A DNA stretch of 64,000 nt from an uncultured Acidimicrobiia bacterium (GCA_963840175.1 CAWIXU010000004.1:9288-73287); one strand, 5' to 3'; counted from the first letter of the stretch, positions 1 to 33,965 are shown. Program-made: numbers and translations. The notes: generated from the sequence alone by a model not told the origin.

Positions 1-1
1 A

Positions 2-400
2 CTCGACATCTCGATTGACAATGCACCCGGCACCGTGATCATCGCTATGACCCAGGCCGGCAACTCTGGTACGCCTGGTCTGTTGGATACAGGTGACATG
101 ATCCTCATCTACTTCTCTGAGGATGTCGTTGTCGCTCCCGGTGCCACGATCCAGCTTCTCGACCCTGACGGAACCACCGCCACGATCACATGTGGCGTCG
201 AGGCGACTTGCGCCTCCGGTCCTGCCGACCAACTGTTGATCACGATTACGGTTGCACTGCCCACCTCCGGCGGGACCACGCCCGGCATCGAGAATCAAGC
301 CGAGATAACAGCGGTAGGCGGCATCACCGCCTCTGACAACGGCGCTGCGGTCAACACTGCGGATTCGAGCGTTTTCGGCCGCACATTCTTCGACTTCTAG
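2..400 (+). CDS. 3' end of a secreted/surface protein of unknown function (5' part outside window)
   Basis: Frame open from nt 2 (LDISIDNAPGTVIIAMTQ...) to TAG 398-400. Thr/Gly/Ala/Ile-rich composition with no catalytic motif recognised. Directly upstream of two SLH proteins. Confidence 0.3.
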   Translation, partial: LDISIDNAPGTVIIAMTQAGNSGTPGLLDTGDMILIYFSEDVVVAPGATIQLLDPDGTTATITCGVEATCASGPADQLLITITVALPTSGGTTPGIENQAEITAVGGITASDNGAAVNTADSSVFGRTFFDF

Positions 401-441
401 CAGTTGACTCCAACGGGGAACGTGAGCGTCCCCGGCAACGT

Positions 442-1154
442 TTGACACCCATAGTGTCGAGGAAAATTTCGTTTGGGTTGGTGGTCGTTCTGATGGGCCT
501 TCTTGCGTCGCCGGCACAAGCTCATCCGGTTCCGATCGACACCTCGAGCGTCGTGCCCGGCGACCACCCCCAATGCGGGGTTCACCGACATTGGAACCTT
601 CGACGCCACTACTCGGACCGCCATCAACTGCCTGGCGGCCTTCGGGATCGCGCAGGGCACCACTGCTGCGACCTATTCGCCCAACGCCAACGTCGCCCGC
701 TGGCAGATGGCGCTCTTTCTCATTCGTCAGGCCGAGGACCATGGCCTGACCGTACCGGCGCCGGTCGATCAGGGTTTCACTGATATCGGCGGGCAGGCAG
801 CGGCGACGCAGAGACGCGATCAATCAGGTCGCGCAGATGGGGATCAGCAGCGGGACGACTTCGACCACCTTTTCGCCCAACGACACTGTTACTCGCTGGC
901 AGATGGCGCTTTTCCTCTATCGACTCGCCGTTCAGGCCGGGGTGACGGTCACCGACGATCCAACCAGCGATTCCTTTAGCGACATCGGCGGCTACGGCAG
1001 CGAGATTCAAACCGCGATCAACTTCCTCGCGGACGGGCACATCGCGCTCGGAACCAGCGAAGGAATCTTCTCGGGCAACGTAAATGTCACCCGCTGGCAG
1101 ATGGCTCTGTTCATCACCCGGGTGCTGGCGGCCGACGGCATCACGCAGTCGTGA
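442..1154 (+). CDS. SLH-domain cell-surface protein (3 SLH repeats), frameshifted
   Basis: TTG 442 plus signal peptide SRKISFGLVVVLMGLLASPAQA. Three SLH-type repeats: FTDIGTFDATTRTAINCLAAFGIAQG..VARWQMALFLIR; FTDIGG..GISSGTTSTTFSPNDTVTRWQMALFLYR; FSDIGGYGSEIQTAINFLADGHIALG..VTRWQMALFITR. Read-through needs 2 frame changes (ORFs 442-783 -> 503-979 -> 837-1154). Confidence 0.75.
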
Positions 1155-1163
1155 GAGCGTATC

Positions 1164-3255
1164 ATGCGCCGTTTGCTCATCGTTTCGGCAGTTCTTGCGC
1201 TGATTGCGGGCTGATGGCACTGCCCGCCGGAGCGTTGGTTTCGGAGGCCTGTCCTTCCAACCTGCCCGCCGGAGCGCTTCGGTGACCTGGCCGGTTTGAG
1301 CACGGATGCTCTGGATGCCATCGATTGCGTTGCCCATTACAAGATCGCCGCAGGGCACCTCGGCGACGACATTCAGCCCCAATTCTTCTGTGCTTCGCTG
1401 GCAGATGGCCCTGTTCCTCACCAGAACGGTGACGGCTCTGGGAGTCGCCCTTCCCAACGGAGCCGGCCAGGGGTTCACCGACATCGGATCTATGCCGGCG
1501 GCGACCCAGACCGCCATCAATCAGATCCGCCAACTCGGAATCAGCCTGGGGACCTCCGCTACCTCCTTCAATCCGTTGGGCGTGGTGCCTCGCTGGCAAA
1601 TGGCTCTGTTCCTGAGCCGGCTCCTCTCAAGCGGTCGGGGTCTCGCTTCCCAACGGCGCCAGCCAGGGCTTCACCGACATCTCGGCCATGCCGGTCGGCG
1701 ACGCAGGTCGCGATCAACCAACTTCGCCAGCTCGGCGTCGCGCTGGGGACAACCGCAACCAGACCTTCTCGCCGTTCAGCGACGTCTTGCGCTGGCAGAT
1801 GGCGCTCTTCCTGGCCCGGTCGACCGAAACCGCGGGTGGCCTTCCGTTCCGATTGGCGGCGGCGCTGCCAGTCGACCACTCCTCCGACCTCGGGCACTGT
1901 CCCCTTGACAGTCACCGTCCGCAATCCCGACGGAAGCCTGGCCAGCGAACCGGCGAGTGGACGTGTTCGTGGCGGCATCGCTCGACAGCAACGGGCGCTG
2001 CGTGCTCGACAACGATGCTCATGTCAACGGAGGCGATGCCGGCTACCAACAGCAACTGCGTGCTCGACAACAATGATCCGCTCACCAATGGCAGCGGTGT
2101 CGTTACGGTCAACCTCACCCACGATGCGACTCAGGAAGTCGACACGATTTACTCCTGGACCGGCGAGGTCGGTGAAACGTTCGATTTGCAGGACGTCCGA
2201 GGCGAAGCGGCGGTGCAGCTCACCTGGGGTGCGGCTCCAACCGGCCTGACCATTCCAGCAAACGTGAGCGCCGGATTTGCTACGTCAGCGCGCGGTCAGG
2301 GCCCAACTGATCGGGCCCGGGGGCGCGGCAGTGACCCTGTCGGGTCAGAACATCAGGTTCACGGTGCAGCGCGGCAACCAGACGATTCTCACCCAGACGG
2401 TGATGACGGGAGCCGACGGAAGCGCCACTCTGACCTATGTCGGTCCGGCCGATCCTTCGGGAGCAGACGACGCTGCGGTCATCGACAACGTCACGGCGTT
2501 CTGGGACAAGGACCGGGACAACGTCGACGACGGCGCGGCCGAGTTCGACGACAGCGGCACCGTTACTTGGGACGATCTGCTTGCCCCCGGTTACGACCGC
2601 CTCTCTCAGCCAGAGTTCCTTGACGCAATCTGCTCGGCGAGTTCGCTTCGATCTCGGTCACCGTCCGCGACAAGTTCAGTCAGCCGATCGCCAACGCCGA
2701 CGTGACGTTCCAAACCGGACAGGCCGGTCCGACCGTCGCCACCACCAACGCCTCTGGAGTGGCCACTTTCCAGTACACGGTCGTTGGCACGGGCTTGGCG
2801 GACTCCGTCGACGCCAGCGTGGATCTCAATCGAGATGGCGACACCAACGATCCCGGTGACCTGGGCTTTGGTGGCGTCACCAACCTCATTCACTACTGGG
2901 TCGCGACCGCGCCGACGCTGGCCGGGATTGACCGTCGTTCGATGTGATTGCGATCAATGCCGGCGCCAACACGGTCGACGTCGTCCAGATCGGCACCGCC
3001 AACTACTACCGGCTCACCTACGACGCGAATGACCAGTTCAATGTCAACGGGGGTGGCTCGGAGAGCCTGGACCAGTTCGAGTCGGCATTGGTCGGTATGC
3101 TGCTTCCGGATCTCGACGGTCCGGGAGGCCAGGAGCTGATCGACCAATCCCTACTCCACACCTGCCGGCGCCGCCAGCGCGTTCCTGCTGAATACCTAGA
3201 GCACGCTCTGGCTAGCGCCTCGAGCGATTTTTGGGACGCGGAGCCGTCGCCGTAG
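1164..3255 (+). CDS. Large surface protein: signal peptide + 3 SLH repeats + Ig-like beta-rich C-terminal region, heavily frameshifted
   Basis: ATG 1164 MRRLLIVSAVLALIAG. SLH repeats ..SVLRWQMALFLTR, ..VVPRWQMALFLSR, ..SDVLRWQMALFLAR in ORFs 1306-1908, 1296-2249 and 1688-2623. Later fragments (TVTVRNPDGS, GSGVVTVNLTHDATQEVDTIYSW, NIRFTVQRGNQTILTQTVMTGADGSATLTY, NASGVATFQYTVVGTG) look like bacterial Ig-like strands. At least 8 frame changes; 3' end uncertain (3199 or 3255). Confidence 0.55.
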
Positions 3256-4292
3256 GGGCTCGGGATGTCTCCGAGGTCGCTCCCATCCGACTTCGAGCAG
3301 GCGGCGCGCCTCGGCGCCGATCCCGGCACCGGCCGCGACTCGGACCGCGAACGTGCCCATGACCTCGGGGCGTTCGGTCGAGTTGCGGACCACCACCAAG
3401 GGTCGTTTCAAAACCGACACCTCTTCGGCGATCCCTCCCGAATCTGAAATCATCAACGCCGCCTCGGCCTCGAGAGCCAAGAAAGTCGCGATAGCCGATC
3501 GGTTCAACGACCATGAGCTTGTGCGAGCAGAGGCTCCGAGGCCGAACTCCTCGGCCCGGGCGACCGAGCGAGGATGCAACGGCAGCAGGACCGGCAGTGG
3601 CAGCGAGGCGAGCTCGATTCAGAATGGTCGAGTACGTGTCTCGCGTCGTCGACATTCTCGGGTCGATGAAAGGTCGAGAGGATGAAGCGGCCGCTTCCAC
3701 GCCGATACCGAGCCAGAATTTCTCCTACGATCCGTGGGAGCAAGGCGGCGACCGCTTCGACCACCGTGTTGCCTGTCAACGCCACCCGTCCGCCGCGATC
3801 CCCTCGGCGTGCGAGGTTGTCGACCGAAGTTGGCGTCGGGGCGCAACAGAGGTTGCTCAGGTGGTCGGTGACCACCCGGTTGTGCTCCTCGGGCATCCCC
3901 CAGTCGTGGCTCCGCAGCCCCGCCTCGATATGACAGAGGAAGACCGAGCGGGCGTTGGCGGCGAGGGCTCCGGCCGTCACCGAGTTGGTATCCCCTTGAA
4001 CGAGGACGGCACGAGGCTGCTGCTCGGCGAATAGTTCGTCGAGTGAAGCGATGGCCGAACCGATCTGTTGGCCGCGGCTGATCCCGCCGACTTCGAGGAA
4101 GGTGTCAGGGGTTGGGAGGCCGAGGTCGCGGAAGAAGACCTCAGAGAGGTTGGGGTCGTAGTGCTGGCCGGTATGGACGACGAAGGCGGCGTCGCCCAGC
4201 AGATGAATGATGTGGGAGAGCTTGACGATCTCGGGCCGGGTACCCAGCACGACCGCGATTGACTTGGGTGGGAATCCGTACTGGTTGGTCAT
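3196..4292 (-). CDS. wecB: UDP-N-acetylglucosamine 2-epimerase (non-hydrolysing), frameshifted
   Basis: IAVVLGTRPEIVKLSHII, HTGQHYDPNLSEVFF, VLVQGDTNS, IEAGLRS in ORF 3504-4292. C-terminal DSGGIAEEVSVLKRPLVVVRNSTERPE in ORF 3196-3579. Confidence 0.85.
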
Positions 4293-4306
4293 AACCTCGG
4301 CCGGGC

Positions 4307-5477
4307 ATGCTACGGGCTCTCCTCCTTGTTCTTGAGCTGGCCCTCATCGCCCTCATCGCCTACAACCTGCGTTGTCGCTCTGCTTTGGATGGAGAAATCC
4401 CGTGACGAGGGCCAGCGGCAGTCGCGCAGCCACCGCTTCGTCATCGTGATCCCCGCTTACAACGAGGAGCGCGTCGTTGTCGCCCGGCCGGTCGCCGATC
4501 TGACACCACAACTAAGGGAAGGTGACGAGTTGTGGGTGCTCGCCGACCGATGCACCGACGACACGGCCGAGGTGGCGCAGGCGGCCGGAGCGCGCGTCGA
4601 CCGAACGCTCCGAGCGGGCCCGACGGAAAAGGCACCGGCACTGGCATGGTTCGTTGCCAAGCGACCGCTAGTTAGCGACGAGGCGCTCGTCGTGATCGAC
4701 GCCGACAATCGGGTCCCCGGCAAGCTCCTCGATCGGTTCGGCGCCGAACTGACCGACGGGCACTCGGTGCTGCAGGCCTACCTCGATGTGGCCAACCCCG
4801 ACGAGTCGGCGTTGGCGACCGCCTCGGCACTCTCGTATTGGGCTTCGAACCGCATGGTCCAGCTGGCGCGGGCCAACCTGGGTTGGACAGCCGATCTCGG
4901 CGGCACCGGCATGTGTCTGACTTCTCGAGGCGCTGAACGCACGCGGGCGGATTCGGGACATCGTTGGTCGAGGACCAGGACCTCGGAGTTCGCTGCTTTC
5001 TCGCCGGACACCCGGTCCGTTGGCTGCACGACGTTCGAATCGCCGATGAGAAACCTCCCACGGCCACCGTCGCTGTACGCCAACGGTCACGCTGGACAAG
5101 TGGACGTCGTCAGGTCGCTCGCCGTTGGTTGGAGAAGGTTGTCAGCCGAGCGACAGCCGGCGTCGCTTGATCTCGCGCTTGCGTCTGGTGCAACCTTCGC
5201 GGATGGGGATGGCGTTGCTCAGCGCCGCGCTGGCCGTGGCCTCGGCTCTCGGCGCGTCCTCTGCTTGCCCTGGCCGTTGTGGACGGCGGTTGCGCTGGTC
5301 CAGTTGCTCGCCCCGATCCCGTTTCTGATCCGCGACCGGGTGCCGTCTCGCTATCTGAGGAAATATCCGCTGCTGGCGTTGCTCCCACTGCTCAAGATTC
5401 CGGGCACGCTTCGTCGCAACCGGGAGTGGTATCACACGCCCCACGGGTTATCGGACGGTTATCCGACTGGGCCCTGA
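4307..5477 (+). CDS. Membrane glycosyltransferase family 2, frameshifted
   Basis: ATG 4307 gives TM segment MLRALLLVLELALIALIAYNL (frame differs from ORF 4326-5477). GT2 core FVIVIPAYNEE..VVIDADN. EDQDLGVR and QRSRWTSG (Q/RxxRW) motif in ORF 4964-5170. C-terminal TM helices. Confidence 0.7.
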
Positions 5478-6432
5478 CGGCCCGGGGCGAGCGGAGTAGC
5501 CCGCGAACCAAGCCCGACGCCGTAACTCAGGTGCATGATCGCGATTGACCCAATACCTCGAGCAGCCGTCCCCGACTCGCCGAGGGCGAGCACCACGATC
5601 CAGACGACGATCAGGAGAAGCAGCGGCCACCAAATCGTGGTGAGCAGGCCGAAGGCGACCGCGACGACCAGGCCGAGAACCAGGGCTAGCGGAGCCAGCG
5701 GTCGCCATGACGGGAATTCGCCGTTGAGATAGAGCATGTCGGCCTTGCCCAGTCCGTATCGGTAGAACTGGCGCCACAGAGCTGCCGGTGTGGACCGGGG
5801 TCGATAGGTCGTACGGATACTAGGATCGATGAGGATCCGTCCTCCACGTTGGCGAAGTCGATAGAAGAAGTCGGCATCCTCGGCGACACGAGACGGCAGT
5901 GATCTCATCCCGCCGTTGGCGAGGAAAGTCTGCCCGGGTCATGGTTCCGAGATAGACGGTGTCACCTTCGGTTGGCTCCTCGGTGTGATGAAACGGCGCT
6001 GGTCCGATTCCGAACTTTCGAGCGGTAGGCCGCCGCGACCGCCCGGCCAAAAGCGTTGTCGCCTTGCGGACGCATCGGACCGCCGACCGCTGCGGCTCCC
6101 GAAGCGAGGAGTGCTTGCACCGAACGAGTTACGTAAGTCAGGGCCGTAGGTGGTGTGAGCATCGGCTCGGATCAAGACGTCGGCTGCGGTGTTGTCCGCG
6201 GCGAGGTTGAGCGCGTGCGATTGCAGGCGTCGGGGATTGTCGACGACGCGCAACCTTGGTAGGCGAACCAGCCAGCGGGCAAGATGTTCGGGAGTGGCAT
6301 CGGTGGAACCGCCGTCGGCGACAACGAGTTCCCACTCCCCGGCGTAGTCCTGTTCCTCAATGCTCTGCGAGGCATTCGTCGATACTCCCGGCCTCGTTGA
6401 AGACCGGAAGCAACACAGCGACCGAGGGCAGT
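5459..6432 (-). CDS. Glycosyltransferase family 2 with C-terminal TM region, frameshifted
   Basis: PSVAVLLPVFNEAGSIDECL (rc of ~6370-6420), LRVVDNPRRLQSHALNLAADNTAADVLIRADAHTTY (ORF 5939-6253), AEDADFFYRLRQRGGRILIDPSIRTTYRPRST followed by TM helices (ORF 5459-5908). Start codon not resolved. Confidence 0.7.
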
Positions 6433-6450
6433 TGATTACGTTCTATCGCA

Positions 6451-7802
6451 ATGACGGATTCGGCCTGGCGCCAGCGGTTGTTTCTGGCAATGGTGGCGGT
6501 GCTCCCGCTTCATACCGTTTATCTAAGCGCCTGGATTTCGTGGAAGCCGTTCATGGTCCTCCTGGCCGTCCTGGCCCTGTGGGACCTGGGCGACGGCATT
6601 CGGCTCCGGCAGTGGCCATGGCACAAGCGAATCACGCTCGCGTTCCTTCCCTTGATGGTGGCGGTTGCGATCGGGTTCCCAGGTCCTGAGCTATCGCGAA
6701 CGATTCATCCGGCTCGCCTTAGCGCTTGTCGTCGGGTTCGGGGTGCTGGCAGTTACCGAGCGACGACTGCGCGGCGTCAGGAATGGGAGCGCGCACCCTA
6801 CGGGTCATCTTCTGGTCCGCGGCCGCCATGGCGGTGACCGGCCTGATCTTCTCGGTGCTGCTTCTCGGCCTCGGGGGGGACGAAGGAATCGACTACCTCA
6901 CAGGGTCGCGCGGTTACGACCTTCCTCTCCTCGACAAAATTGGCAAGCCCGCCTATCTCTTGTCGGGTTTCCTCGCGCTTTCCAACTGGCATCAGGACCC
7001 GGGCTATGGAGCCGCTTGGGCGGTCCTCTGGGCGACATTGGCCCTCATCGCTTCCCTCCGCGGCCTCGGAACCAAAAGTCCTCTGATCGACGGAGCGATC
7101 ATCGGTGTTCTTTGGTCCGCAGTGGTGATGGGATTCTCCCGCACCGGGTGGGTGGCGCTGGCCGTGTCGTTGGTTCTCGTGGCCTGGAAGGTGACACGGC
7201 GAGGATTGGTCAAACGGATCGTCGCTGCAACCGTTGCCCTGATCTTGTCGATGGGGCTTCTCTTCGTCGCTGATGTCGAGAATGTCGGGGGGGAGCTGCC
7301 ACTTCAGTTCGCCTTTCGGCTCCGTCAGGGCTGGGACCTCCTGGCATCGATCACCGGGCTGTTCGAGTCATCCGCAGCCTTCGAGGACCAGTTCCAGCCA
7401 TCCGAGCAACGGGCCGACGTCTGGCCGGAGTACTGGCAACTGTTCCTCGACCACCCGGTCACCGGGGTGGGCTTCGGGGTTGGCTGGGAAACCAACTCCA
7501 TCGGCCAGGAACCGCACAACTTGTTTCTCGAGCTCGGAGCAGAAACCGGGATCATCGGTCTCGTCGCTTTTGCGTTGTTGTTGGGCTTGATCATTCGCGC
7601 CGGCAGCGGAGTTCTCGGGGCGGTGGCGCTGACCGTGTCGTTCTTGCCTGCGTTCACCCAGACAGTGCTCTTCGAACCAACCTGGTGGTTCGCCGCCGGC
7701 CTGTTCTTGGCCGCGGGAGGGAAGTTCGAGGATGCCGCGGAGATGCCTGTAGAGTCGTCTGACGAGTCAGGGGTTGTCACCCCAAAACAAGCTGCTGCCT
7801 AG
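6451..7802 (+). CDS. O-antigen ligase / polymerase-like (Wzy_C family) polytopic membrane protein, frameshifted near 6.7 kb
   Basis: About 10 hydrophobic segments. Characteristic loop GVGFGVGWETNSIGQEPHNLFLELGAETGIIGLVAFALLLG in ORF 6726-7802. N-terminal TM fragment in ORF 6451-6837. Confidence 0.65.
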
Positions 7803-7816
7803 GGTTTTGGCGCGCC

Positions 7817-9727
7817 TTGCGTCTGCCTGGAAAGCTGGAAGGAGCGATTTTGCGCTCGCCAATCAGACAACTCCTCGCTGTGATTTTGGCCTTCGGGCTT
7901 CTCGGCGCGAACCTGCCCGTCGCCCACGCGCAGACGACCGATCCGACGTTCACCGTCACCGGATCGGGATGGGGTCACATGGTGGGAATGTCCCAATACG
8001 GAGCGAGGGCGCTCGCCGCGAATGGATCTTCGGCTGCCGATATCACCGGCTTCTATTACGCCGGAACCACCGTGCGTCAAACCACGGACGTCGTTTCCAA
8101 CTTCATGGTCACCGATCCCGATCCGCTCTGGATCGGACTGTTGCAGAACCGGTCGACCTTCAACTTCCGCGTCGACGGCGCCGGACCGGTCGGCCTTTGC
8201 AAAGCCAACGACGGCGAGGGCGAATGTCCCACCCAATTCGCCCTCTCGGGAGAAACCTGGGAGTTCCGCGCGTTGGGCGGCGGTGCCTGCCAGTACTTCA
8301 AAGCCGGGGTGGCAGTTGGCAATCCCGGAACCTGTCGCGGGGCCCTGACCTGGGACTTTGGCACGGGAACGAAGATCTTCTCACCCGATAACGGGCGGAC
8401 ATATGCCCGGGGCATCATCCGCTTCCGTCCGGCCGGAGCCGGATTCCATGTGGTTCTCGAAATCAACATGGAGGGATATCTCTATGGGCTGGGGGAGATG
8501 CCCTCGAGCTGGCCGATGGCGGCGATGCAGGCCCAGGCGATCGCGGCGCGCACCTACGCCTTGCGACAGGCATTGCGATACGGGCCGGAAGAGACGCTTG
8601 ACGCCTCCCGGCAGGCGACCTGTTGGTGTCAGCTGGTCTCCACGGTGGCCGATCAGGCGTACGTGGGTTGGGGCAAGGAGGTGGAGTCGCAAGGAAACCG
8701 GTGGGTCGAGGCAGTCAACACCAGTGCCGGCCAAGTGATCACCCACCCCCAAGCACCGGACTCGACAGTGATCGTCGCCTACTACGCCTCCTCCACGGGA
8801 GGCCACACCGATAGGAATGTCGAGGGCTTGGGCCACACCAATCCCTTGCCTTATCTGGTGGCGACGCCCGACCCCTGGTCCGTGTCAGCCGCCGCGGCTA
8901 ACCCTTTCGCGACCTGGACGCGCACGCTGACCGCAGCCGAGATCGCCACGGCCTTCGGGCTGGAATCAGTCACAGGCGTGGAGGTGACCCGACGCAATGG
9001 CTCCGGTACGGTGGCAGAGGTCACCATTGCCGGCACGCTTGGCGGACAGTCGACACTTCTTGTGCGCAGCGGCCGTAGTTTTCGTGATGCGTTTGCGATG
9101 CGTTCCACTGCCTACGCGATCAGCGGCGGGAGCGGGATCGGGACCGCCATCTGTGACGGCGTACCGCCCCCGGCGGGGTTCACCGATGTCGCGGTCGGCA
9201 ACATCCATTCCGAGGGAATCAACTGCCTGGCCGCCCTGGAGATCACCACCGGGACCACCGCCACCACGTTCTCGCCCGCCCAGGCGGTGAGCAGGTGGCA
9301 GATGGCAGTCTTCTTGATCCGCACCGCTCACGCCCTCGGGATTGCGGTGCCGGCACCCGTGCCGCAGGGATTCACGGACCTAACCGGCATGGCTCTCACC
9401 ACCGTCGATGCGATCAACCAGCTCAAACAACTCGGGGTCACCTCGGGAACGACCCCGACGACCTTTGCCCCCAACGCCAGCGTGTCCCGCTGGCAAATGG
9501 CGCATTTCCTCACCCGTCTTTTCGCGATCGCCGGCGGCGCACCGGCCGGAGCTGGCGCAAGCTTCAGTGATCTCAACGGCCTGAGCCCCGAGACGATCGC
9601 GGCGATTGGCCAGCTGGCCGGTCTGGGGATCACGCTCGGGACGGGTCCCGGGACCTTCGGCCCCAACGACGTGGTCACCCGCGAACAGATGGCGACCTTC
9701 CTCACCCGCCTGATCCGGCTCCTTTAG
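7817..9727 (+). CDS. SpoIID/LytB-domain protein fused to 3 C-terminal SLH repeats (intact ORF, 636 aa)
   Basis: Signal sequence. GSGWGHMVGMSQYGARALAANG, EMPSSWPMAAMQAQAIAARTYAL and YYASSTGGHT are SpoIID-type motifs. C-terminal FTDVAVGNIHSEGINCLAALEITTG..VSRWQMAVFLIR, FTDLTG..VSRWQMAHFLTR, FSDLNG..VTREQMATFLTRL are SLH-type. Confidence 0.85.
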   Translation: MRLPGKLEGAILRSPIRQLLAVILAFGLLGANLPVAHAQTTDPTFTVTGSGWGHMVGMSQYGARALAANGSSAADITGFYYAGTTVRQTTDVVSNFMVTDPDPLWIGLLQNRSTFNFRVDGAGPVGLCKANDGEGECPTQFALSGETWEFRALGGGACQYFKAGVAVGNPGTCRGALTWDFGTGTKIFSPDNGRTYARGIIRFRPAGAGFHVVLEINMEGYLYGLGEMPSSWPMAAMQAQAIAARTYALRQALRYGPEETLDASRQATCWCQLVSTVADQAYVGWGKEVESQGNRWVEAVNTSAGQVITHPQAPDSTVIVAYYASSTGGHTDRNVEGLGHTNPLPYLVATPDPWSVSAAAANPFATWTRTLTAAEIATAFGLESVTGVEVTRRNGSGTVAEVTIAGTLGGQSTLLVRSGRSFRDAFAMRSTAYAISGGSGIGTAICDGVPPPAGFTDVAVGNIHSEGINCLAALEITTGTTATTFSPAQAVSRWQMAVFLIRTAHALGIAVPAPVPQGFTDLTGMALTTVDAINQLKQLGVTSGTTPTTFAPNASVSRWQMAHFLTRLFAIAGGAPAGAGASFSDLNGLSPETIAAIGQLAGLGITLGTGPGTFGPNDVVTREQMATFLTRLIRLL

Positions 9728-9775
9728 TCCTATTTCCTCTGTAGGGAGAGTTGGGCGCGGCCGATTGATGACAGG

Positions 9776-11045
9776 ATGGCGGTTGTTGGCAATGGACCCG
9801 AAACAGAGTGCAGGCGTGACGTCGAAGAGCTGGACTCACCGCGGGGCTTCAAGGCACCGGGCACTGCTCGCATGATCGCCGGCTCGCTGGTCGGCGCGGT
9901 GGCGGCCTACCTCTTCCAGGTGCGTCGGCGTGCGCAGCGTCTGGGGACGGAAGCCTTCGCGCCGATCGCCGTCCTGTGGACCGTCTTCTTCATCGTCGCC
10001 ACTGTGATCGTCTGATTCCTCTGGAGCATTTCGTGACCCGCGAGGTGGGGCGAGGACGACGGGTGCTGCGTTCGGATCGAGCGGCGATGATCCTCTGATC
10101 CTCCTCTCACCGGCAACGCTGATCGCGGCTGTTCGTATTATCTGATGCGGGACCGCCTCTTTGCCGGCGAGTCGATCTTTGCGTTCCAGGCCTTCCTTCT
10201 GACGATCGGGTTTGGATTGATGCAGGTCGGCAAAGGCATCCTGGCCGGACATCGGCAGTTTGCTCGTTACGGGGCGCGTCCTGGGCTCGAAGGAATCATA
10301 CGGCTCTTGGCGGCCGTCATCTTCCTCGCGCTGTCGGCCAGCGCCGTCTCGCTCGGTTGGGCCATGGTGGCCGCGCCTCTCGGCGATCTTCTTCGTCACG
10401 ACCCTGGAGCCACGATCGGGAGACCGTCGCCGGAGTCGTCGCGACGCCGGCCCGCGGGTTCTTGTCTTCTTACGTTGCGGGCGCGGCAGCTTCCCAGCTT
10501 CTACTGGCCGGAGCCCCGCTCGCGGTAGCAGCTCTCGGTGGCAACGAGCATCTGCGTAGCGTCATGTTCGTCACCTTCACTCTGTATCGGGCGCCGCTGA
10601 CGCTGATTTACAACCTGCAGGGCCGAGTTCTTTCACTCCTGGTCCGCCTCGAAAACGGCGACGCGATTCGACGTCTGGATCGACCAGGGTGGCGACCTTC
10701 GGAGTCGGCATGATCGCGGTCGCCGGTCTGGTCGGATGGTTGGTCGGGCCGGCCGTCGTCGAGCTGCTTTACGGGCAGGATGCTCGTCCGATCGCACTCG
10801 TCGCAGCTTGTGCGGCGGCCGGCGTTATCGCCGCCTCGATCACGCAGATCCTTTCGCAGGCGCTGGTGGCGGGAGGATCAACCGGCGAGTTGGCCGGCGC
10901 GTGGGTCGGCGGCCTCGTCGTCGGGCTGGGGACGATGGCGCTTCTGGAACGGGCCTCCCGACGTGCGAGTGGCGGTCGGCTTCCTCGCCGGCGGAGGTTG
11001 TTCGCCCTGGCTTTGGCGACTTGGCGCATTCTCCGTCCGCGTTGA
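9776..11045 (+). CDS. Polytopic membrane protein, probable polysaccharide flippase (Wzx/MOP-like), frameshifted
   Basis: Four consecutive hydrophobic fragments (9776-10015, 10145-10528, 10357-10713, 10689-11045), e.g. IFAFQAFLLTIGFGLMQVGKGILAGH, FVTFTLYRAPLTLIYNLQGRVLSLLVR, IAVAGLVGWLVGPAVVELLYGQDARP. Family assigned from composition and context only. Confidence 0.4.
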
Positions 11046-11450
11046 CATCCACTCGATATGCGCTCGCCGCAATGCCGGCGACATTCTCTTGATGGCCCCG
11101 TCATCGAGGGGTTGAATTCGGTCCCGAGCGATGATCACGTTCCCGTCGAGGTGAACGAGCCCGGCTGATAGCAAAGTCGAGAGGTGCAAGGGCCGCCGTA
11201 GGGAGTTGCCGCGGAAACCTGCTTGCACGATGCGCAACAGGTCAGCGATCGCTTCTACGCCCAGAACTGCGGACCAAAATCTCCGGACGTACAGATCGGT
11301 TGGGGCGAACCCGGACTCGCTTTTCATGATGGAGACGAGATAGAGCGGACGGCGGGCGACTGTCGGTCGGAGCGCCTCGTCCGGAAGCGGTGCGGCCAAT
11401 GTTGCATAGGGAGGACATGGCAACGGCTTCCGGGACGAGACACTCCTCAC
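10878..11450 (-). CDS. Hypothetical protein (small helical, possibly winged-helix-like)
   Basis: 190-aa ORF; internal start MKSESGF (11327) is more plausible. APTDLYVRRFWSAVLGVEAIADLLRIV..RRPLHLSTLLSAGLVHLDGNVIIARDRI. 3' end overlaps the preceding gene, so the true stop is uncertain. Confidence 0.3.
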   Translation of the reverse strand: MRSVSSRKPLPCPPYATLAAPLPDEALRPTVARRPLYLVSIMKSESGFAPTDLYVRRFWSAVLGVEAIADLLRIVQAGFRGNSLRRPLHLSTLLSAGLVHLDGNVIIARDRIQPLDDGAIKRMSPALRRAHIEWMSTRTENAPSRQSQGEQPPPARKPTATRTSGGPFQKRHRPQPDDEAADPRAGQLAG

Positions 11451-11561
11451 GCTTACGAAGTATCAAGAACCGTTAACTACCGTCAAGTCCCTTAGAAACC
11501 TTCTTTTCGCGACTTCTGGATGCTTCAGCTTCTCCCCGGAGCGGGGATAGCGCGCGATCGC

Positions 11562-12126
11562 GTTTTCTTCCCCCGGAGGGGGGAGTACCCGAGCGAAGCG
11601 AGGGGGTAGGGGGCGTTTTCTCGAGACCCAGGAGCTCAACCCTCTTCTATTCCCCTCGAAAAGGAACTACTCGTTCAACATGGCCCGACCCCGTCACACC
11701 GACCTCGCCGCGAACGAGAGCACGGGAGCTTCAGAAACGGGATGACCGTCTCAGAGGCGCGGGTGTGGCAGGTGATCCGCGGCGGACAATGCGGCGCCCG
11801 GTTCCGTCGGCAGGTTCCGATCGGACGGTGGATCGTCGACTTCGCCAGTCTGCAAGCCACGACTGGTGCTCGAAATCGATGACGAGTCACACGACTGGCG
11901 TGACGAAACGGAACGCATCGAGTACATCGAAGCGGAGGGTTTTCCGATTTTGCGGCTGACAAACAAATACGTCGCCGAGGACCTCGGCGCCGTTCAGCGA
12001 ACGGTGAGCTTGTGGGTGGCGGAGCTCAAGGCAGGGCGAAGGCCGGAGTAGGGATCGCGTCTGGAGAGAACGCCCCCCTCGTCTGCCTCCTTCGTCGGCA
12101 GACACTCCCCCCTCCGGGGGAGAAAC
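11562..12126 (+). mobile_element. DUF559-nuclease cassette copy 1, bounded by ~60-bp imperfect terminal inverted repeats
   Basis: Left terminus 11562-11622 GTTTTCTTCCCCCGGAGGGGGGAGTACCCGAGCGAAGCGAGGGGGTAGGGGGCGTTTTCTC. Right terminus 12064-12126 GAGAGAACGCCCCCCTCGTCTGCCTCCTTCGTCGGCAGACACTCCCCCCTCCGGGGGAGAAAC. Homologous end-to-end with 41552-42118. Degenerate solo termini at 11530-11550 and 12132-12153. Confidence 0.6.
11680..12051 (+). CDS. DUF559 (Vsr-like PD-(D/E)XK) endonuclease-domain protein, copy 1, two frame changes
   Basis: ATG 11680 MARPRHTDLAA.. Then MTVSEARVWQVIRGGQCGARFRRQVPIGRWIVDFAS.., then ..LEIDDESHDWRDETERIEYIEAEGFPILRLTNKYVAEDLGAVQRTVSLWVAELKAGRRPE (ORF 11866-12051). Paralog of the intact ORF 41675-42043. 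Confidence 0.75.
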
Positions 12127-12175
12127 GGGAGATCCCCTCCGGGGGGAGAAATTCAGGTCTGGGGATGAAACGGAT

Positions 12176-14752
12176 TTAGCCCGAGGGTGGCGCAGGGGCG
12201 GCGGCCTGGCCGACGGTGATGTACACCGGGCTCTTGTACGTCATCGCCGTTCCCGGCCCGGGGGTCTGAGCGAGAACGACATCGACCTGGGCGGGGTCGG
12301 TGACCGGCACGTAGGTCGCGTACACGTCGACCCAGGTCCCAGTTGAGTAGATGAATCGGTTGATCGTTCGGTAGGCCTCGCTGATCGGTAGGCCGATCAC
12401 ACTCGGCAACGCGCCGCCAGGGACCTGGCCGTTCGAGACATATATACGAATCGGAAGCCCGGCTTCGACTTCGGCTCCCGAACCGAGCGACTGGAAAACG
12501 ACGGTGCCCGCGGCCTGCAGCGAGGGAATCGGGGTTCACGTTGGGGATGAGTTTGGCCTCGGTCGCCAACGACACTGCCTCGGCTTCGGTCTTGCCGATG
12601 AGATAGGGAACGATGGTGGTCGGGGGCTTGAGGAACGGCTGGAGCTCCTCTTCGGTCAGGCGTGGAAAGTCGAGTGCTTCGACATCGGTCAGCACCATCC
12701 GCATGAACTCGGCCCAGATCGGAGCCGGGACCGAACCACCGAAGACCCGTTCGTAATACTCACCGTGGATGCGAACGTTGCGCAGGGGAACCTGATCTCG
12801 CTCGTACCCCACCCAGACCGCAGTCGTGTACTGCGGAACGAAACCGACGTACCAGGCGTCGCGATAGTCCTGGTGGGTGCCGGTCTTTCCACCCTGGGGC
12901 CGACCGATGGCGGCTCGCTCGGCCGTTCCTTCCGCGGTCGGCACTTCGAGCAGCGGGATTCGCGCTGCCTCGGCGATCGGCGCGGCGATCACCTGCTGCT
13001 GCTCGACCTGGTGCTGGTAGAGCACCTGGCCGTCCTCGTCGAGGATGCGGTCGATCAGATAGGGCTCGGCGTAGAGGCCGTTGGTGGCGAAGGACGAATA
13101 GGCGGAAGCCATCTCCAAGGTCGAAACTGCACCGGTCCCCAGCACGATCGAAGGCACCGGCTGGCAGCGGTGAGGTGATCCCCATTCGGTGCGCGGTCTC
13201 CACTACCTTCTCCGGCCCTACCTGCAAGGAGAGCTGGGCGTAGATCACATTGATCGATCGAGAGGTGGCTTCCTGGAGGGTGATGCGGCCGGCGCTGGCC
13301 CCGGCATTCGACACGGTCCACTTGTTGGGATCGGGCCCATCCGAGCAGATCGTCGGGCAGGTCAGGATGCGAGGGCTCGACCCGTCATATGTGTTGCCGA
13401 GCGTGATGCCGTTCTCGAGCGCCGCGACCAGACCAAACGGCTTGAACGCCGAACCGGGGTTACGTCGACCCTGGACGGCGAGGTCGAACTGGCTCTGTTC
13501 GAAGGGGAGCCCCGAAGCCATCACCTCGACCGCCCCGGTCTGGTTGTTGACCATCGTCAAAGCTCCAGTTGGTGAGCAAGAGTTGGCCTCGGCGTACGAG
13601 GTCAGGTTCTCGATCGGCTCGCTGGGAAAGATTCTCGTGCAGAGTTGCAGGTTCTCTTCGTAGGAATAGAAGGGGAGCCACTCGAGCAGCATCGCATTCG
13701 CCGCTTGCTGCAAATTGAGATCGATGGTCGTTTCGATGGTCAGGCCCCCGCCACCGACGCAGTTGACATCGTCGGATGGGCAACCGAAGACCGAGATGGC
13801 GCGCTCCTCCAGGGTCTGGCCGAGAAAATCGAACTCGTGACGCGAGAGGTCGGACAGCTGCCGCATCACCTCGGTGCGCACGTGTTCCGCCTCGCCGCGG
13901 AACTCGATGTGCTCGAGCACCCCAAGGGGTCTTGACTTGGCGATCTCCGCCTGAGATTCAGTGGTCCAGTCCTGTTCGAGCATGAGGTCGATGACGTCGT
14001 TGCGCCGATCGAGAACTACCTCTGGATTGTCGCCGAGGGTCGTAGAGCGAAGGGTTGCGGATGAGCACCGCGAGGGTGGCGGCCTGATCCAGGGTCAGCT
14101 CGGACATCTCGCGGTGGAAGAACTCACGGGCCGCGGTCTTGACCCCGTAGGCGCCGGCACCGAAGTAGACCGAGTTCATGTAGAACTCGAGGATCTTGTC
14201 CTTCGAGTGGCGACGCTCGAGCTCGGCGGCGATAAACGCCTCTTTGATCTTCCGCTCGATCGTGACCTCGTCGCCGACGAAGACGTTTTTCACGACCTGC
14301 TGGGTGATGGTCGAACCGCCGCGGGTGTTGCCGCTGCGGAAGTTGTCGAGGGCAGCCGAGGCGATGGCCGGGAACGAGACGCCCTGATGGTCGTAGAAGC
14401 CTTTGTCCTCCGCCGCCAGGATCGCGTGTTGAAGGAGCAACGGCACCTCGTCGATCGGGGCCGGCTCGGAGTTGCGCCCGTCGTGGAGCTCGCCGATGAT
14501 TTCTCCGCTTGCCCATATCCGCGACACCCGTGACAGGTCGGGGAGGGTCAGAGTCAACGTCTCGACTTCAGGGACGTACTCGGCTCTTACCTTGTCGATG
14601 GCGGCATAGGCGGAGTTGGCGCCGAGGAAAGTGAAGAGGCCAACCCAGGTGCTGCCCAGGAGCGCGATCGACAGCAGTCCCGCCAGAGCCGGGAACCAGC
14701 GGCCACGACGCTCGCGCGCTTCCAGTTGGTGGATGAGGGATCGATTGGCCAT
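12176..14752 (-). CDS. ponA: Class A penicillin-binding protein (PBP1A: transglycosylase + transpeptidase + 2 PASTA-like repeats), frameshifted
   Basis: GT51 motifs AILAAEDKGFYDHQGV and RGGSTITQQVVKN. Transpeptidase motifs GSAFKPF (SxxK), VSNAG (SxN) and GGKTGTHQD (KTG). C-terminal VPYLIGKTEAEAVSLATEAKL and MPSVIGLPISEAYRTI. ORFs 13958-14752, 12760-13983, 12153-13157, 12176-12409. Confidence 0.85.
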
Positions 14753-17772: not shown

Positions 17773-18656
17773 ATGTCGTTGTAGCCAACGTTCGTGAACT
17801 GCCGACACACGGTTCCAGAGCGCATCTACGGCGCTCGGAGGTCCGTCGGGGCGAATGGCGAAGACATCTGCCAAGGCGGCGAACCAGTCGCCCGGATTAT
17901 CCAGCGTGGTTGAAGTCGACTCGTGCTCTCGACGTCGGGTGAGGACGCATCCCCGGAGAATGTCGGTCCCGTTCTCGAGTCGAAGCTGGGCGGTGACGAC
18001 TCCGGCAAAGCTCGATTCGGGGGACGTCGACAGGTGCTTGTGCCGTTCGCCGACACGCGTCCATCTCCACCTGGCCTGTCCGAAAGCTCATGCCCGAGAA
18101 GGAGCCGGTGGAATCGTGGGTGAAGTGCCAATCGCCAACCCCATCATCGGTCTCCTCGAAGCGAAAGGTCATTGGGTTCTGGGCATAAGTGCCCGAGATC
18201 ATTGGAAGCGGGTCGTATAGCCCGTCGCCAAGTCCCGCGTCCACCCACCAATCTCCATTCGGGTTCTCAGCCGTTGGGAGGTCATGGGCAACAAGCACCA
18301 GGTGATTCGACAACCACTTGACGTCGGGACCCTCGGGTCCATGTACGCCGCCGATGTGGCGGGTCACGTGATAGCCCAGCGAACCCAACACGAGGGATAA
18401 GGCTCCGTTCATCTGATAGCAGTAGCCGCCGCGGCTGTGGTTGGCGATTCGGTCCAGCGAGGCGGTCGGGTCGATGCTCCAGTTCTCGGACATATGAATC
18501 CACACGGATTCGTAAGGCACCCGTTCGACCCAAGCCCGATGGAGCCGGCTGCAGTGCCTCCGCGGAGGGAGGCTCCACCTCGACCCCGATGCGTCCTAGC
18601 GCCCGAACGACGTCCGGCTCTATCTGATGTCTGAAATCTGATGTCTGATGTCTCAC
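17761..18656 (-). CDS. Arylamine N-acetyltransferase (NAT family), two frame changes; both termini lie inside the inverted-repeat arms
   Basis: RGGYCYQMNGALSLVLGSLGY (catalytic Cys motif) in ORF 17897-18520. N-terminus ..VVRALGRIGVEVEPPSAEALQ then RLHRAWVERVPYESVWIHM. C-terminus in a third frame: ERHKHLSTSPESSFAGVVTAQLRLENGTDILRGCVL..ALWNRVSAVHERWLQRHSDV*. The only in-frame start candidate is GTG 18656-18654, overlapping the upstream TGA. Confidence 0.75.
18622..18654. repeat. Right arm of split CAGACATCAGA-type hairpin element
   Basis: ATCTGATGTCTGAAATCTGATGTCTGATGTCTC. Near-identical to 45470-45502, the right arm of the intact hairpin. Confidence 0.8.
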
Positions 18657-20154
18657 TGGTAGCTCACGTATACCGGTACGGGGTCGAGGGCTAGCACCTC
18701 CGCTGGAGTGGCTCCTCCCCGAGGGGTGTCTTCGTCGTAGAAGTTCTTCCAGCCCCAGAGGAAATTGTCGCCGTTTGCGGTTAGCGCGTCCCACGTGTCG
18801 TATTTGGTGCCGAGCGGTCCCTGTCCGTCCATCTGGATTACAGTCGCCAGCTCAGGATGAGTGACGATCTGGTCGCGGTTCTCGATCATGTCGAGACGGA
18901 ACTGATGGAGCAGGAAGAACTTCTGCGGGCAGCTTGTTCTCGCGGACGAGAGCGGCGAGCCACTCGGAAACCTGGTTGACCTCGGCGGCGTCGACCGATC
19001 CGATTTGGCGGAGATGGACCTGGTCGGGTTCCAGCCGCCACTCCGGGTCGAGGGCGAGACCGACGTGAGGCAAGCCGAGAAATTCTTCGTACGGCCTTGG
19101 CCTGGGTGAGGAAATCGGTGCGACCTGGTTGCAGATCGAGGATCACGTACACATCGTTGGCGGCGGCAACCTCGATCCACGGTCGGATGACGTCGAGGCT
19201 CATCTCTTCGGAGTAGTTGTTGTCGTCGCCCGGGAAGGCGGACGCGACGGTGGCGATGATTTCGAAGCCCAAGACGACTGGAGTCCCGTCGGCGTCATAG
19301 CCGGCGGCGATCTCAGCCGCCCTCGCGACGGCTTCCTCGGGACCCTGCTCGCCGAGGACCCCAAGCGCCGACGTGGTCGGGTTGCCATAGAGCGCCACCA
19401 ACCTTCGACCCGGGAACAGCTTGAGCCCGCCACCGGGGAGCTCTGGGGCGTTGACGAGCGCGCCGCTTTGCCATTCGATGAGCTCGGGATCAAAGCCCCC
19501 GGCGACGAACATCTCCTGCGCGGGGGTCGATCTCACCGACTCGAGCAACGCCTGGTCGCCGAGCATGTTGTGTGGATCGGCAAGGACGACCCGGTCACCC
19601 CGTAAGCCGGCGAGAGCGGTCACGGGAGCGACGAGGTCGGACCTGGTGGCGTCCGCCAGCCAGATATTTTCGCCTTCTGTGTCATCGGTTGGGTTTCTGC
19701 CGGCGGCCGCGATGGCTTCCTGTAGAGCGATCGAGTTGCTGGGAATTCCGGCCACCCCACTAGGGAGGGCGCCCCCAACGACCGAGATCGAGTGTGGTGC
19801 GAGGCGGCGTAGCTCATCTACGACCTCGGCGTCAGTCCCTGCGACCAAAAGCGGTGCCTTGATGGAGGCGGCGTAAGCGCCTGCTGCCTCGAGTTCCGGC
19901 GTCGAACCGCTCGCCACCACGACGTGGTCGGCGCACGCCAGGGTGGCCTTGGAGAGGGCGATCGAGAGCTCGACGGGGTCGGTGCTGGTGAAGATCTGCT
20001 GATCGGGTGCGATTCGACATTCCCGGGCCGTGGTTGTGGTTATCGCCTCAGTCGTGGTCGTCGCCGACGGTATTGACGAAGGCGTGCTCGTGCCACCGGC
20101 CGAAGTGCATGAAGCCAACACCAGCCAGACAATCACGGCCGATTTTTGGTTCAA
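18653..20154 (-). CDS. Secreted lipoprotein of unknown function (conserved block; glycoside-hydrolase-like fold only suspected), frameshifted
   Basis: TTG 20154 overlaps the accA stop (TTGA). [21 protein letters not shown] is lipobox-like, followed by a Thr-rich linker. Conserved C-terminal blocks: LVALYGNP..GFEIIATVASAFPGDDNNYS..VYVILDLQPGRTDFL, GLALDPEWRL, LLHQF..MDGQG. ORFs 18886-20343, 18852-19073, 18653-19180. Confidence 0.4.
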
Positions 20155-28372: not shown

Positions 28373-29290
28373 CAAGCTTGGCGATCTCGAGGACCCGTGG
28401 GCCAACTTGGTGGAGGCGGCGACGTCATCCATTCGGGTGTTCGCCGTGTGGATCCGCGGCCGTTTGTCGGTGTTCATCCTCGCTGTCGCTTTCGTCGATG
28501 ACGAGGTCGGTGAGGAGTCCCGAGTAGGACGGAGATCGACGCCGGCAGTATCCGCACCGTGACCCATCGACACCAAGCACTCGGTGGGCCGGTCCTTTGA
28601 GCGCGTGCCTCCGATCAGGGGCTCACGCCGATCACCTGCTCATGGCGGCAATCGTGTCGGCCACACCGGGCACGGCCAGGATCGGCCAGATCGATAGGAC
28701 CGGGTTCGAGGGGCCGATGACGACTACGTCGCTCTGCCGGCCAAGGCCTCCATGACCCCGGGCGCCGGCCGGCAGAAACCCGCTCCGCGGAAGCGCACGT
28801 CGCTCACTTCGTCGGCGTGGCGACGGAAGTACGAAATACTCCTGGAAGGAGATCCAGCCTTCACCGGCGAATCCGGACTTCGGTCCGCAGCGGGTCGTCG
28901 GTCACGGGCAGGATGGTGGCCGCGATCCCAAAGGCCGAGGCCAGCGCGGTCGTCACCCAGGTCAGCGACCACCCCGCAAGAAGACGATCCGTGCGAAACA
29001 GGTTGGTGGCAAGGTCGCTGTCTCCGATCCGGAATGTCGTGTCGATCGGCAGAGCGATCGAGGGCCTTCATCGCCGCGAAGGGATCATCGGCCAGGCCCC
29101 AACCGTGCGGCCCCTCGCGCCCCGCCATGGTGTAGATGATCGTGTCGATGTCGGGCGAGACCGCCAAGCCGTAGATGCGGTCGTCGTCGCCGACGTTGGC
29201 GATCACGGTCAATTCGTGGTCGGGCAGAGCCGCAAATCCACGGGCGAGCTTCGCCCCGCCCACTCCTCCTGAAAGCATTGTCACCCGCAC
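28347..29290 (-). CDS. cofD: 2-phospho-L-lactate transferase (F420 biosynthesis), frameshifted
   Basis: VRVTMLSGGVGGAKLARGF, TVIANVGDDDRIYGLAVSPDIDTIIYTMAG, VVIGPSNPVLSIWPILAVPG, VIGVSPLIGG. The end overlaps the cofE start. Confidence 0.8.
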
Positions 29291-33680: not shown

Positions 33681-33731
33681 CCGTACGGTCGCTGGTGGAA
33701 AGGCCACAACGAATCCTCCAAGCGTTCTACC

Positions 33732-33959: not shown

Positions 33960-33965
33960 CCGGCC

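Follow-up and report, generated by a model that had tools for sequence, protein, structure and literature searches.

The window analysed here is a stretch of 64,000 nucleotides from an uncultured Acidimicrobiia bacterium (GCA_963840175.1, CAWIXU010000004.1:9288-73287), and the system under study is a group of SLH proteins encoded in its first 11 kb among genes for glycan assembly. This region appears to form the right-hand part, and most, of a cell-surface locus that is conserved in Acidimicrobiia and would encode four secreted SLH proteins. We consider it fairly probable, on genomic rather than chemical grounds, that SLH trimers anchor these four proteins on a wall polymer which contains N-acetylmannosamine (ManNAc), is pyruvylated by CsaB and is supplied by the locus. 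A first-pass annotation had proposed such a polymer-plus-anchor system by analogy. At the genomic level the proposal is supported by the order of the locus and by csaB-like genes in two relatives, L170 and L172 (numbers with L denote loci and numbers with P denote proteins used for comparison).

Nine SLH repeats, arranged as three triplets, were found in three genes of the window, which are called here gene A, gene B and the SpoIID-SLH gene (Table 1). Genes A and B are not open as they stand, so that frame changes matter for this finding, and the gene models in the window are conceptual translations across such changes. The PF00395 scores of all three proteins, 62.6 bits for A (E 3e-17 with the reconstructed translation; two frame changes), 29.6 bits for B (at least seven frame changes) and 81.4 bits for the SpoIID-SLH protein (E 4.5e-23), exceed the gathering score of 20.8 bits. 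A hidden Markov model built from the nine repeats placed them at 578-745, 801-941 and 972-1139 in gene A, at 1278-1443, 1471-1629 and 1695-1837 in gene B and at 9176-9340, 9368-9535 and 9560-9718 in the SpoIID-SLH gene, and revealed no SLH repeats in the rest of the 64 kb. A signal-peptide-like segment can be recognised by inspection at the start of each of the three complete proteins. The first-pass annotation had named SLH triplets in these three genes, and the repeats do score in the SLH profile search, far above what chance would give; to this it is to be added that A and B are not intact open reading frames (ORFs) and that part of a fourth SLH gene lies at positions 2-397. Its coordinates hold for gene A (442-1154, plus strand), while gene B ends at 3199 and not at 3255, as judged from alignment to L006, P0123 and P0127, and the SpoIID-SLH gene starts by homology at 7850 and not at 7817. 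The counterpart of the 2-397 fragment in L006 is an SLH protein of 567 amino acids (aa; PF00395, 47 bits). The fourth gene is therefore cut by the left edge of the window, and its N-terminal part with the SLH triplet lies to the left of it.

The domain architecture differs among the proteins. Gene B also matches PF02369 (37.5 bits), and its intact orthologs (664-689 aa, 44-88% identity) occur in many Acidimicrobiia contigs; from this architecture and its conservation in the clade, the product is a possible S-layer or surface protein. The SpoIID-SLH protein matches PF08486 with 60.6 bits and TIGR02669 with 145 bits and is 91% identical to P0001. A SpoIID protein with a triple SLH region, 34% identical to that of the window, was also observed on a 4.3-kb contig binned as 'Candidatus Woesearchaeota archaeon' (L015, CAZYQG010000035.1), which is probably a mis-binned bacterial contig.

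Sequence alignment of the SpoIID protein's SLH triplet with Sap of Bacillus anthracis (3PYW, E 2e-7) extends across all three repeats. The trimer fold of this triplet was modelled with AlphaFold2 (AF2) from window positions 9149-9724 and 13 homologues (pLDDT 93.8, pTM 0.89); for genes A and B the assessment is from sequence. All 15 Foldseek matches in the PDB with E of 0.001 or less were SLH trimers of Sap or of Paenibacillus alvei SpaA (TM 0.64-0.84; 0.79/0.84 against Sap 3PYW), including complexes with 4,6-Pyr-ManNAc, and no other PDB fold came below E 3.7. The triplets are bona fide SLH domains, by profile in all three genes and by predicted fold in the SpoIID protein. The ligand roles of two of their residues, SLH-Arg43 and SLH-Gly29, have been described (Blackler et al., PMC6081394); SLH-Gly29, in the GIIxG motif, undergoes a backbone flip upon ligand binding. 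All nine window repeats have Arg43 (within S/T-R-W-Q or T-R-E-Q), which does not vary over 13-15 homologues, down to 39% identity. The Gly29 position is likewise occupied by Gly in all nine (G-I/V-x-x-G-T); among 13 homologues, repeat 2 never departs from it and repeat 3 almost never, while a few sequences have another residue in repeat 1. The third position of the TRAE motif is Trp (S/T-R-W-Q-M-A, the RW type) in eight of the nine repeats, the ninth reading T-R-E-Q. This RW type is common to the close clade (L001-L014, L170-L172); the sister clade has RG and RA types.

The SLH genes are interleaved with wecB, two family-2 glycosyltransferase (GT2) genes, a gene for a Wzy_C protein and a flippase-like gene, as first annotated; the family matches and a WzxE-like fold bear this out. 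For wecB, colinear tblastn matches were obtained in shifted frames, and the intact ortholog in L004 scores 260 bits with TIGR00236 against a cut-off of 210. GT2a is EpsU-like by NCBIfam, below cut-off. Within GT2a, another frame matches the orthologs better at 4943-5161 (67-70% versus about 47% identity) with the ORF remaining open; this is a compensated indel pair, which makes the 383-aa ORF seemingly intact and partly mistranslated. The Wzy_C protein, with two frame changes near the 5' end of its gene and orthologs of 432-452 aa, is well above the PF04932 cut-off of 31.7, a family in which polymerase, ligase and O-oligosaccharyltransferase would look alike. The flippase gave no Pfam or NCBIfam match, and its orthologs are named 'O-antigen/teichoic acid export membrane protein' by JGI. 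The AF2 model of the ortholog P0242 (pLDDT 87.3) has as its best Foldseek match Escherichia coli WzxE (9g9p, TM 0.73, 416 columns, 16% identity), followed by MATE and then MurJ, and by this predicted fold the label flippase-like is justified. A comparison by hhalign of a 4-sequence flippase alignment with the MurJ-annotated protein of L007 was discarded (probability 0.1), the profiles being too shallow.

Conservation of the locus was followed in ortholog neighbourhoods and in a tblastn survey of 88 loci. The succession Wzy_C, SpoIID/SLH, Wzx, a small ORF in some cases, a class A penicillin-binding protein (PBP1) and methylmalonyl-CoA mutase is kept throughout the clade with at least 50% identity. 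The longer order wecB(-), GT2, GT2(-), Wzy_C, SpoIID-SLH, Wzx is complete in L004, L006, L008, L171 and L172 and partial in L001, L002, L003, L009, L010, L014 and L170, the last with insertions; L002 and L003 have other sugar genes in place of wecB-GT2-GT2. Upstream of wecB lies a variable SLH island, with up to five SLH-bearing genes or fragments in L006 and two to three in L007, L170 and L172; in relatives, genes for an ABC-2 (Wzm/Wzt-like) exporter and for a methyltransferase stand ahead of this island. The position of an SLH-tagged wall enzyme inside a set of glycan-assembly genes is the strongest genomic argument for functional coupling.

Pyruvyl transferase genes with PF04230 are present in the L170 and L172 neighbourhoods, which reach further upstream than the others. 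L172, on a 458-kb contig, is colinear with window positions 1395-13837 at 68-75% nucleotide identity, and its order reads csaB(-), PIN, FAD oxidoreductase(-), GH26/SLH, methyltransferase(-), ABC2, ABC_tran, SLH, gene B ortholog and wecB onward. The N-terminal 238 of the 483 aa of its CsaB match TIGR03609 with 137.9 bits (E 4e-40, model positions 1-209 of 301) and contain GYYGFGNTGDEAIL and GGGGLIQD. L170 has a CsaB-GT1 fusion at the equivalent position (196.4 bits, E 7e-58). TIGR03609 is the best family for both of these CsaB-like genes, which stand at the upstream end of the SLH island, and both loci share the gene order of the window and its RW-type SLH motif. The L006 locus breaks off within its FAD-oxidoreductase gene; to reach the position that csaB has in L172, it would have to extend about 1.5 kb further. 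Because of the synteny with L170 and L172, the genome of the window would be expected to carry csaB about 9-12 kb to the left of base 1, beside the ABC-2 exporter. The first-pass annotation had named a genome without a csaB-type gene, and with few other SLH proteins, as a ground for refutation; such a gene is carried in the lineage, by L172 and L170, and is missing from the window itself, which ends before the expected position.

Further pyruvyl transferases were found in more distant genomes by motif search and jackhmmer. In the Actinomycetota metagenome-assembled genome (MAG) with locus L030, a CsaB-like gene (TIGR03609, 185 bits) is flanked by wecB-like, S8-SLH and SpoIID-SLH genes, and three Acidimicrobiia MAGs (L017, L018, L022) encode a fusion of GT2 and PS_pyruv_trans (PF04230, 82 bits) next to SLH islands, in L017 beside five consecutive SLH proteins. 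Among the metagenome contigs with a transferase of the L017 type (at least 38% identity), 22 of 28 contain SLH repeats, the exceptions all being short; their SLH motifs are only of the RG and RA types, none RW. This linkage is evidence on the sister clade and has no direct bearing on the clade of the window. The fusion protein, of about 780-800 aa with GT2 as its N-terminal and PS_pyruv_trans as its C-terminal domain, was located at 1-2349(-) in L017, 2010-5867(-) in L018 and 3-2174(-) in L022 and also in the metagenome loci L089-L116. The sister-clade islands encode SLH-fused S8 peptidase, CAP, GSDH, M15 peptidase and SpoIID proteins.

Table 1. Features of the SLH locus and of neighbouring and more distant genes discussed in the text (positions counted from the first base of the window).
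Position	Strand	Feature	Match
2..397	+	Last 132 codons of a fourth SLH protein	82% nucleotide and 74% aa identity to C-terminus in L006
442..1154	+	Gene A: small secreted protein of ~235 aa, signal peptide and 3 SLH repeats	PF00395
1164..3199	+	Gene B: secreted protein of ~670 aa, signal peptide, 3 N-terminal SLH repeats, Ig-like Big_1 region(s)	
3207..4292	-	wecB/mnaA: non-hydrolysing UDP-N-acetylglucosamine 2-epimerase (makes UDP-ManNAc), frameshifted	PF02350 (Epimerase_2), E 5e-54
4326..5477	+	GT2a: family-2 glycosyltransferase	PF13641, PF00535
5510..6446	-	GT2b: family-2 glycosyltransferase, C-terminal transmembrane helices, frameshifted	PF00535 (E 5e-15), PF13632
6463..7802	+	Wzy_C protein of ~445 aa: Wzy/WaaL-clan polymerase or ligase	PF04932, 72.5 bits, E 4e-20
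7850..9727	+	SpoIID/LytB peptidoglycan-remodelling enzyme, signal peptide, C-terminal SLH triplet (9176-9718), intact ORF	
9776..11045	+	Predicted Wzx-type (MOP superfamily) flippase of ~410 aa, 12 helices, 2 frame changes	Fold match
10884..11450	-	Conserved protein of 170-190 aa, no family match	64% identity to a 189-aa ORF of L001
12206..14752	-	Class A penicillin-binding protein (transglycosylase, transpeptidase, PASTA), 3 frame changes	PF00912, PF00905, PF03793
25138..26292	+	LCP (LytR-CpsA-Psr) glycopolymer ligase with LytR_C	PF03816 (93.8 bits), PF13399
26469..27629	+	ugd: nucleotide-sugar dehydrogenase, UDP-glucose 6-dehydrogenase type	PF00984, PF03720, PF03721

In the proposed mechanism, WecB would make UDP-ManNAc, from which the two GT2 enzymes would build a lipid-linked repeat. 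The Wzx-type flippase would export this repeat, the Wzy_C protein would polymerise or ligate it, and an LCP enzyme, encoded here or elsewhere in the genome, would attach the polymer to peptidoglycan. CsaB, the pyruvyl transferase, would be encoded at the upstream end of the SLH island, outside the window. Each SLH trimer would then hold its protein non-covalently on this peptidoglycan-linked secondary wall polymer, the conserved Arg of each repeat gripping the anionic, pyruvate-ketal-modified ManNAc as in B. anthracis and P. alvei.

Several observations weigh against this anchoring scheme. As first annotated, csaB is missing from the 64-kb window: no PF04230 was found by Pfam (about 80% covered as coding segments or by eye), by motif search or by jackhmmer in six frames, the Pfam scan for csaB, TagA, TagO and Bac_transf being one of coding segments and not an exhaustive six-frame scan. 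Nor is PF04230 present within 10 kb of the orthologs in L001-L008, among them the closest contig L006 (about 91% nucleotide identity), or in the L169 and L171 neighbourhoods. The CsaB-like genes of L170 and L172 score below the TIGR03609 equivalog cut-off of 213.1, one being partial and one a fusion. No TagO/MraY-type (PF00953) or TagA/WecG (PF03808) protein was found in the scanned window segments or in the Pfam lists of L001-L008 and L169-L172, so that the tagA-like ManNAc transferase of the original proposal did not turn up. A polyprenyl-phosphate priming transferase (Bac_transf) was not found in the window; such a gene was seen solely in L007 and L017, two loci of different organisation. 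TagO and TagA may be encoded elsewhere, or the GT2 enzymes may replace them. None of the nine window repeats has SLH-Trp13, the residue that in SpaA stacks on the ManNAc ring, or any other Trp in that loop; the SpoIID triplet has Ile, Ala and Pro where Sap has its Trp. Finally, the relatives carry the ABC-2 exporter and methyltransferase in their island, and some also carry genes for sulfotransferases and for the supply of 3'-phosphoadenosine 5'-phosphosulfate (PAPS). The SLH ligand may therefore be another polymer or carry another modification, and with this ABC-type exporter in the island of the relatives more than one pathway could make it.

The exporter bears on a second explanation, which we regard as possible though unlikely: that wecB, the two GT2 genes, Wzx and Wzy_C form a protein O-glycosylation cluster, with Wzy_C as an O-oligosaccharyltransferase that puts a ManNAc-containing glycan on the adjacent SLH proteins, and that the SLH ligand is a different polymer from the csaB and ABC-2 end of the island. 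In L170 and L172 csaB does adjoin the ABC-2 exporter and not the Wzx/Wzy cassette, and the cassette directly adjoins surface-protein genes, just as S-layer glycosylation clusters adjoin S-layer genes in Paenibacillus and Geobacillus; the S-layer glycan of P. alvei, moreover, contains ManNAc. The Wzy_C domain is common to polymerases, ligases and O-oligosaccharyltransferases, and the only NCBIfam match of an ortholog is to the O-oligosaccharyltransferase TfpM, a weak one (E 1e-7, far below cut-off). However, a Wzy_C protein of about 445 aa presumably fits the size of Wzy, WaaL and WpaA/B and not that of the larger S-layer O-oligosaccharyltransferases. The Wzy_C-SpoIID/SLH-Wzx core is constant while the sugar genes upstream vary, and PBP1 abuts it, which fits a wall polymer. 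A priming transferase is missing from the cassette under either explanation.

Alternatively, the co-localisation might reflect no more than a general envelope neighbourhood, in which the glycan genes make a capsule, an exopolysaccharide or a teichuronic-type polymer and the RW-type SLH domains bind something other than pyruvylated ManNAc, such as peptidoglycan or a glycan with another modification. The missing Trp13, the change of TRAE to TRWQ and the lack of csaB in the window and within 10 kb in L001-L008 would agree with this, as would the differing upstream sugar genes of L002, L003 and L007; SLH domains that bind a non-pyruvylated ligand, cadaverinated peptidoglycan, have been reported in Negativicutes. 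Yet L170 and L172, whose SLH motif is of the same type, carry csaB in this very island, and throughout the clade an SLH gene is flanked by those for Wzy and Wzx. Arg43 and Gly29 have also been kept, and the only fold matches are SLH trimers that bind pyruvyl-ManNAc. A merely general neighbourhood, or a different SLH ligand, is rather improbable. The loss of Trp13 is a change in a ligand-contact residue and leaves SLH domain membership unaffected. There is also a small chance that RW-type SLH domains have shifted in ligand geometry or specificity, with Trp13 lost and a new Trp gained in TRAE, towards an epitope other than terminal 4,6-pyruvyl-ManNAc. The ligand may in that case be a methylated or sulfated cap or a uronic-acid-bearing glycan exported by the ABC-2 transporter of the island, and the Wzx/Wzy cassette, together with the SpoIID-SLH gene inside it, would be a separate wall-growth module.

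Genes A and B, wecB, both GT2 genes and the Wzy and flippase genes are all broken by frame changes in this assembly. By codon-bias segmentation, nearly every gene longer than 1 kb in the window is split into two to eight pieces in differing frames, including secA (45529-48124), the class A penicillin-binding protein, an acyl-CoA carboxylase (20953-23273) and ftsX. When intact orthologs from short-read assemblies were compared with the window by tblastn, they gave colinear high-scoring segments that differed only by frame changes, in the SLH region as elsewhere; residues 1-239, 231-530, 531-739 and 741-848 of PBP1, for example, fall in frames -1, -2, -3 and -1. Against L006, 98 gaps were counted over about 12 kb, almost all of 1 nucleotide and only about one third of them in homopolymer context. 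The density of single-base indels over the whole window is about 1.3 per kb. Because essential genes carry such breaks too, the indels point to assembly errors and not to pseudogenes. The window looks like an unpolished long-read assembly, in which ORF-based annotation would be badly fragmented. That the locus is truly decaying, with A, B, wecB, the GT2 genes, Wzy and Wzx as pseudogenes and no functional system, is very improbable: the first 11 kb do hold at least 18 frame changes and the SpoIID-SLH gene is nevertheless intact, but breaks are equally dense across the window, including secA, PBP1, acyl-CoA carboxylase and ftsX, they are colinear single-base indels in otherwise conserved protein sequences without in-frame stops, 98 mostly 1-nucleotide gaps do not fit the evolution of coding sequence at 91% identity, and the short-read orthologs in L001, L002 and L004 are intact.

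The origin of the DNA, given as actinobacterial in the first-pass annotation, could be narrowed by protein matches to uncultured Acidimicrobiia. The G+C content of the 64-kb window is 63-65%. The best database matches of the intact SpoIID-SLH protein (625 aa) have 91%, then 83% and then lower identity, and they are SpoIID/LytB proteins with SLH repeats from uncultured Acidimicrobiia MAGs and metagenome contigs. Among GTDB species representatives, scanned with the same protein, the only close relatives were 'Acidimicrobiia bacterium' MAGs, with at most 72% identity. By these matches the lineage belongs to the uncultured Acidimicrobiia and is without a close reference genome.

To the right of the flippase gene, a short minus-strand ORF of 158-189 aa is also found in L001, L008 and L171, and the penicillin-binding protein is a conserved right-hand neighbour of the cassette in L001-L006, L009, L012, L171 and L172. 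The LCP and ugd genes, which had been listed at 25-27.7 kb, are present there but lie in a separate gene block. This block also holds cofE/cofD, DUF5719, GT2, phosphomannomutase, SIS-type isomerase and adenosylhomocysteinase genes, and we take it to resemble a gene order common in Actinobacteria. LCP and ugd are plausible helpers of the SLH locus without a specific tie to it. The ugd product scores 207.8 bits with TIGR03026 (cut-off 189.8); its assignment as WecC (UDP-ManNAc dehydrogenase) was considered and set aside, the NCBIfam scores of 82 bits for WecC versus 230 bits for a TuaD-like enzyme favouring UDP-glucose dehydrogenase.

Some further observations were made along the window and in the related loci. 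Sulfotransferase-like genes stand beside SLH/glycan loci in L007 (18001-18948), L008 (11707-16025), L170 (2249-3019) and L002 (1-673), L007 and L008 lying on the same 2.93-Mb contig. L008 has a full PAPS supply, with ATP sulfurylase/adenosine 5'-phosphosulfate (APS) kinase, a CysQ-like phosphatase and a sulfate permease-like protein, which hints that some members of the clade sulfate their wall glycan. A direct repeat of 560 nucleotides with 81% identity (11569-12126 and 41563-42118) carries in each copy a fragment of a DUF559-type (endonuclease-like) gene; the copies bracket about 29 kb, including the LCP/ugd/cofDE/manB block, and a DUF559 gene occurs at the position of the first copy in L004, L005 and L006 as well. 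Between genes for a pyridine-nucleotide oxidoreductase and the acyl-CoA carboxylase, a conserved 550-aa protein is encoded at 18656-20139 (-); its ortholog in L004 matches CWB2 (PF04122) with 22 bits, below the threshold of 24.9, and the match was not used, although a further wall-binding module may be present here. Downstream of cofE/cofD, a second envelope-glycan block at 28876-37365, apart from the SLH locus, comprises GT2, a DUF5719 protein, a large multi-pass membrane protein and GT2(-). The multi-pass protein (34.6-36.8 kb) has no family match and is possibly GT-C-like by eye.

Soils, waters and sponges harbour Acidimicrobiia in abundance; hardly any have been cultured, and next to nothing has been described of their envelope. 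For this group the locus offers a testable model of how surface proteins are displayed, possibly as an S-layer, and in this model wall-remodelling enzymes (SpoIID here, amidase or peptidases in relatives) would be targeted in the same way through SLH domains. The TRWQ-bearing, Trp13-less SLH domain is moreover a natural variant for probing the part that the conserved residues play in ligand recognition.

Among known systems, the secondary cell wall polymer of B. anthracis is modelled with MnaA, TagO/TagA, a MOP-type flippase, WpaA/WpaB of the Wzy/WaaL clan and LCP. The window resembles the S-layer and BSL proteins of that species (Sap, EA1, BslO; csaAB) in its tandem triple SLH, which aligns and superposes with Sap, and in having SLH modules on a large Ig-like surface protein as well as on a peptidoglycan hydrolase. 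It shares with B. anthracis a UDP-N-acetylglucosamine 2-epimerase, a MOP flippase, a Wzy/WaaL-clan protein and, at a distance, LCP, with a CsaB-like protein in relatives. Unlike B. anthracis, neither the window nor the related loci examined have a TagO/TagA homologue, GT2 enzymes standing in place; the SLH repeats lack Trp13 and read TRWQ instead of TRAE, the island of the relatives contains an ABC-2 exporter and a methyltransferase, and the host is a high-GC actinobacterium. In P. alvei, csaB-tagA-tagO adjoin spaA and slhA, and CsaB pyruvylates the lipid-linked ManNAc repeat. The window is similar in that SLH protein genes adjoin wall-polymer genes, ManNAc is supplied by MnaA/WecB and the SpaA SLH trimer (6CWC, 7SV3) ranks near the top of the structures matched; the third SLH repeat of SpaA has a variant motif, TRAQ. 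In contrast, P. alvei has its mnaA elsewhere and csaB-tagA-tagO in one operon, whereas wecB lies inside the locus of the window and csaB, in its relatives, about 9 kb away beside the ABC exporter; nor is Trp13 conserved in the window. With the enterobacterial common antigen pathway of E. coli, in which WzxE is the flippase of lipid III and the product contains ManNAcA, the window has in common a wecB equivalog, a WzxE-like fold and a Wzy_C protein, but its locus lacks a WecA-type primer, WecG, WecC and a chain-length regulator, and the identity to WzxE is about 16%.

The system is less remote from the textbook model than had been implied. A survey of Terrabacteria found CsaB together with SLH across the group, a few Actinobacteria included (Witwinowski et al., bioRxiv 10.1101/2021.05.31.446380), and its supplementary table credits Ca. 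Microthrix parvicella RN1, a member of the Acidimicrobiia, with more than 12 SLH proteins and two with PF04230; cultured Acidimicrobium and Ilumatobacter genomes are negative there. The survey gives presence and absence, without a conserved locus, a SpoIID-SLH gene between Wzy and Wzx or an RW-type motif. Nothing is overturned by the present locus, the pairing of SLH and CsaB being an old and widespread trait of Terrabacteria; rather than a new scheme, it adds a little-studied lineage to those in which this way of anchoring is known.

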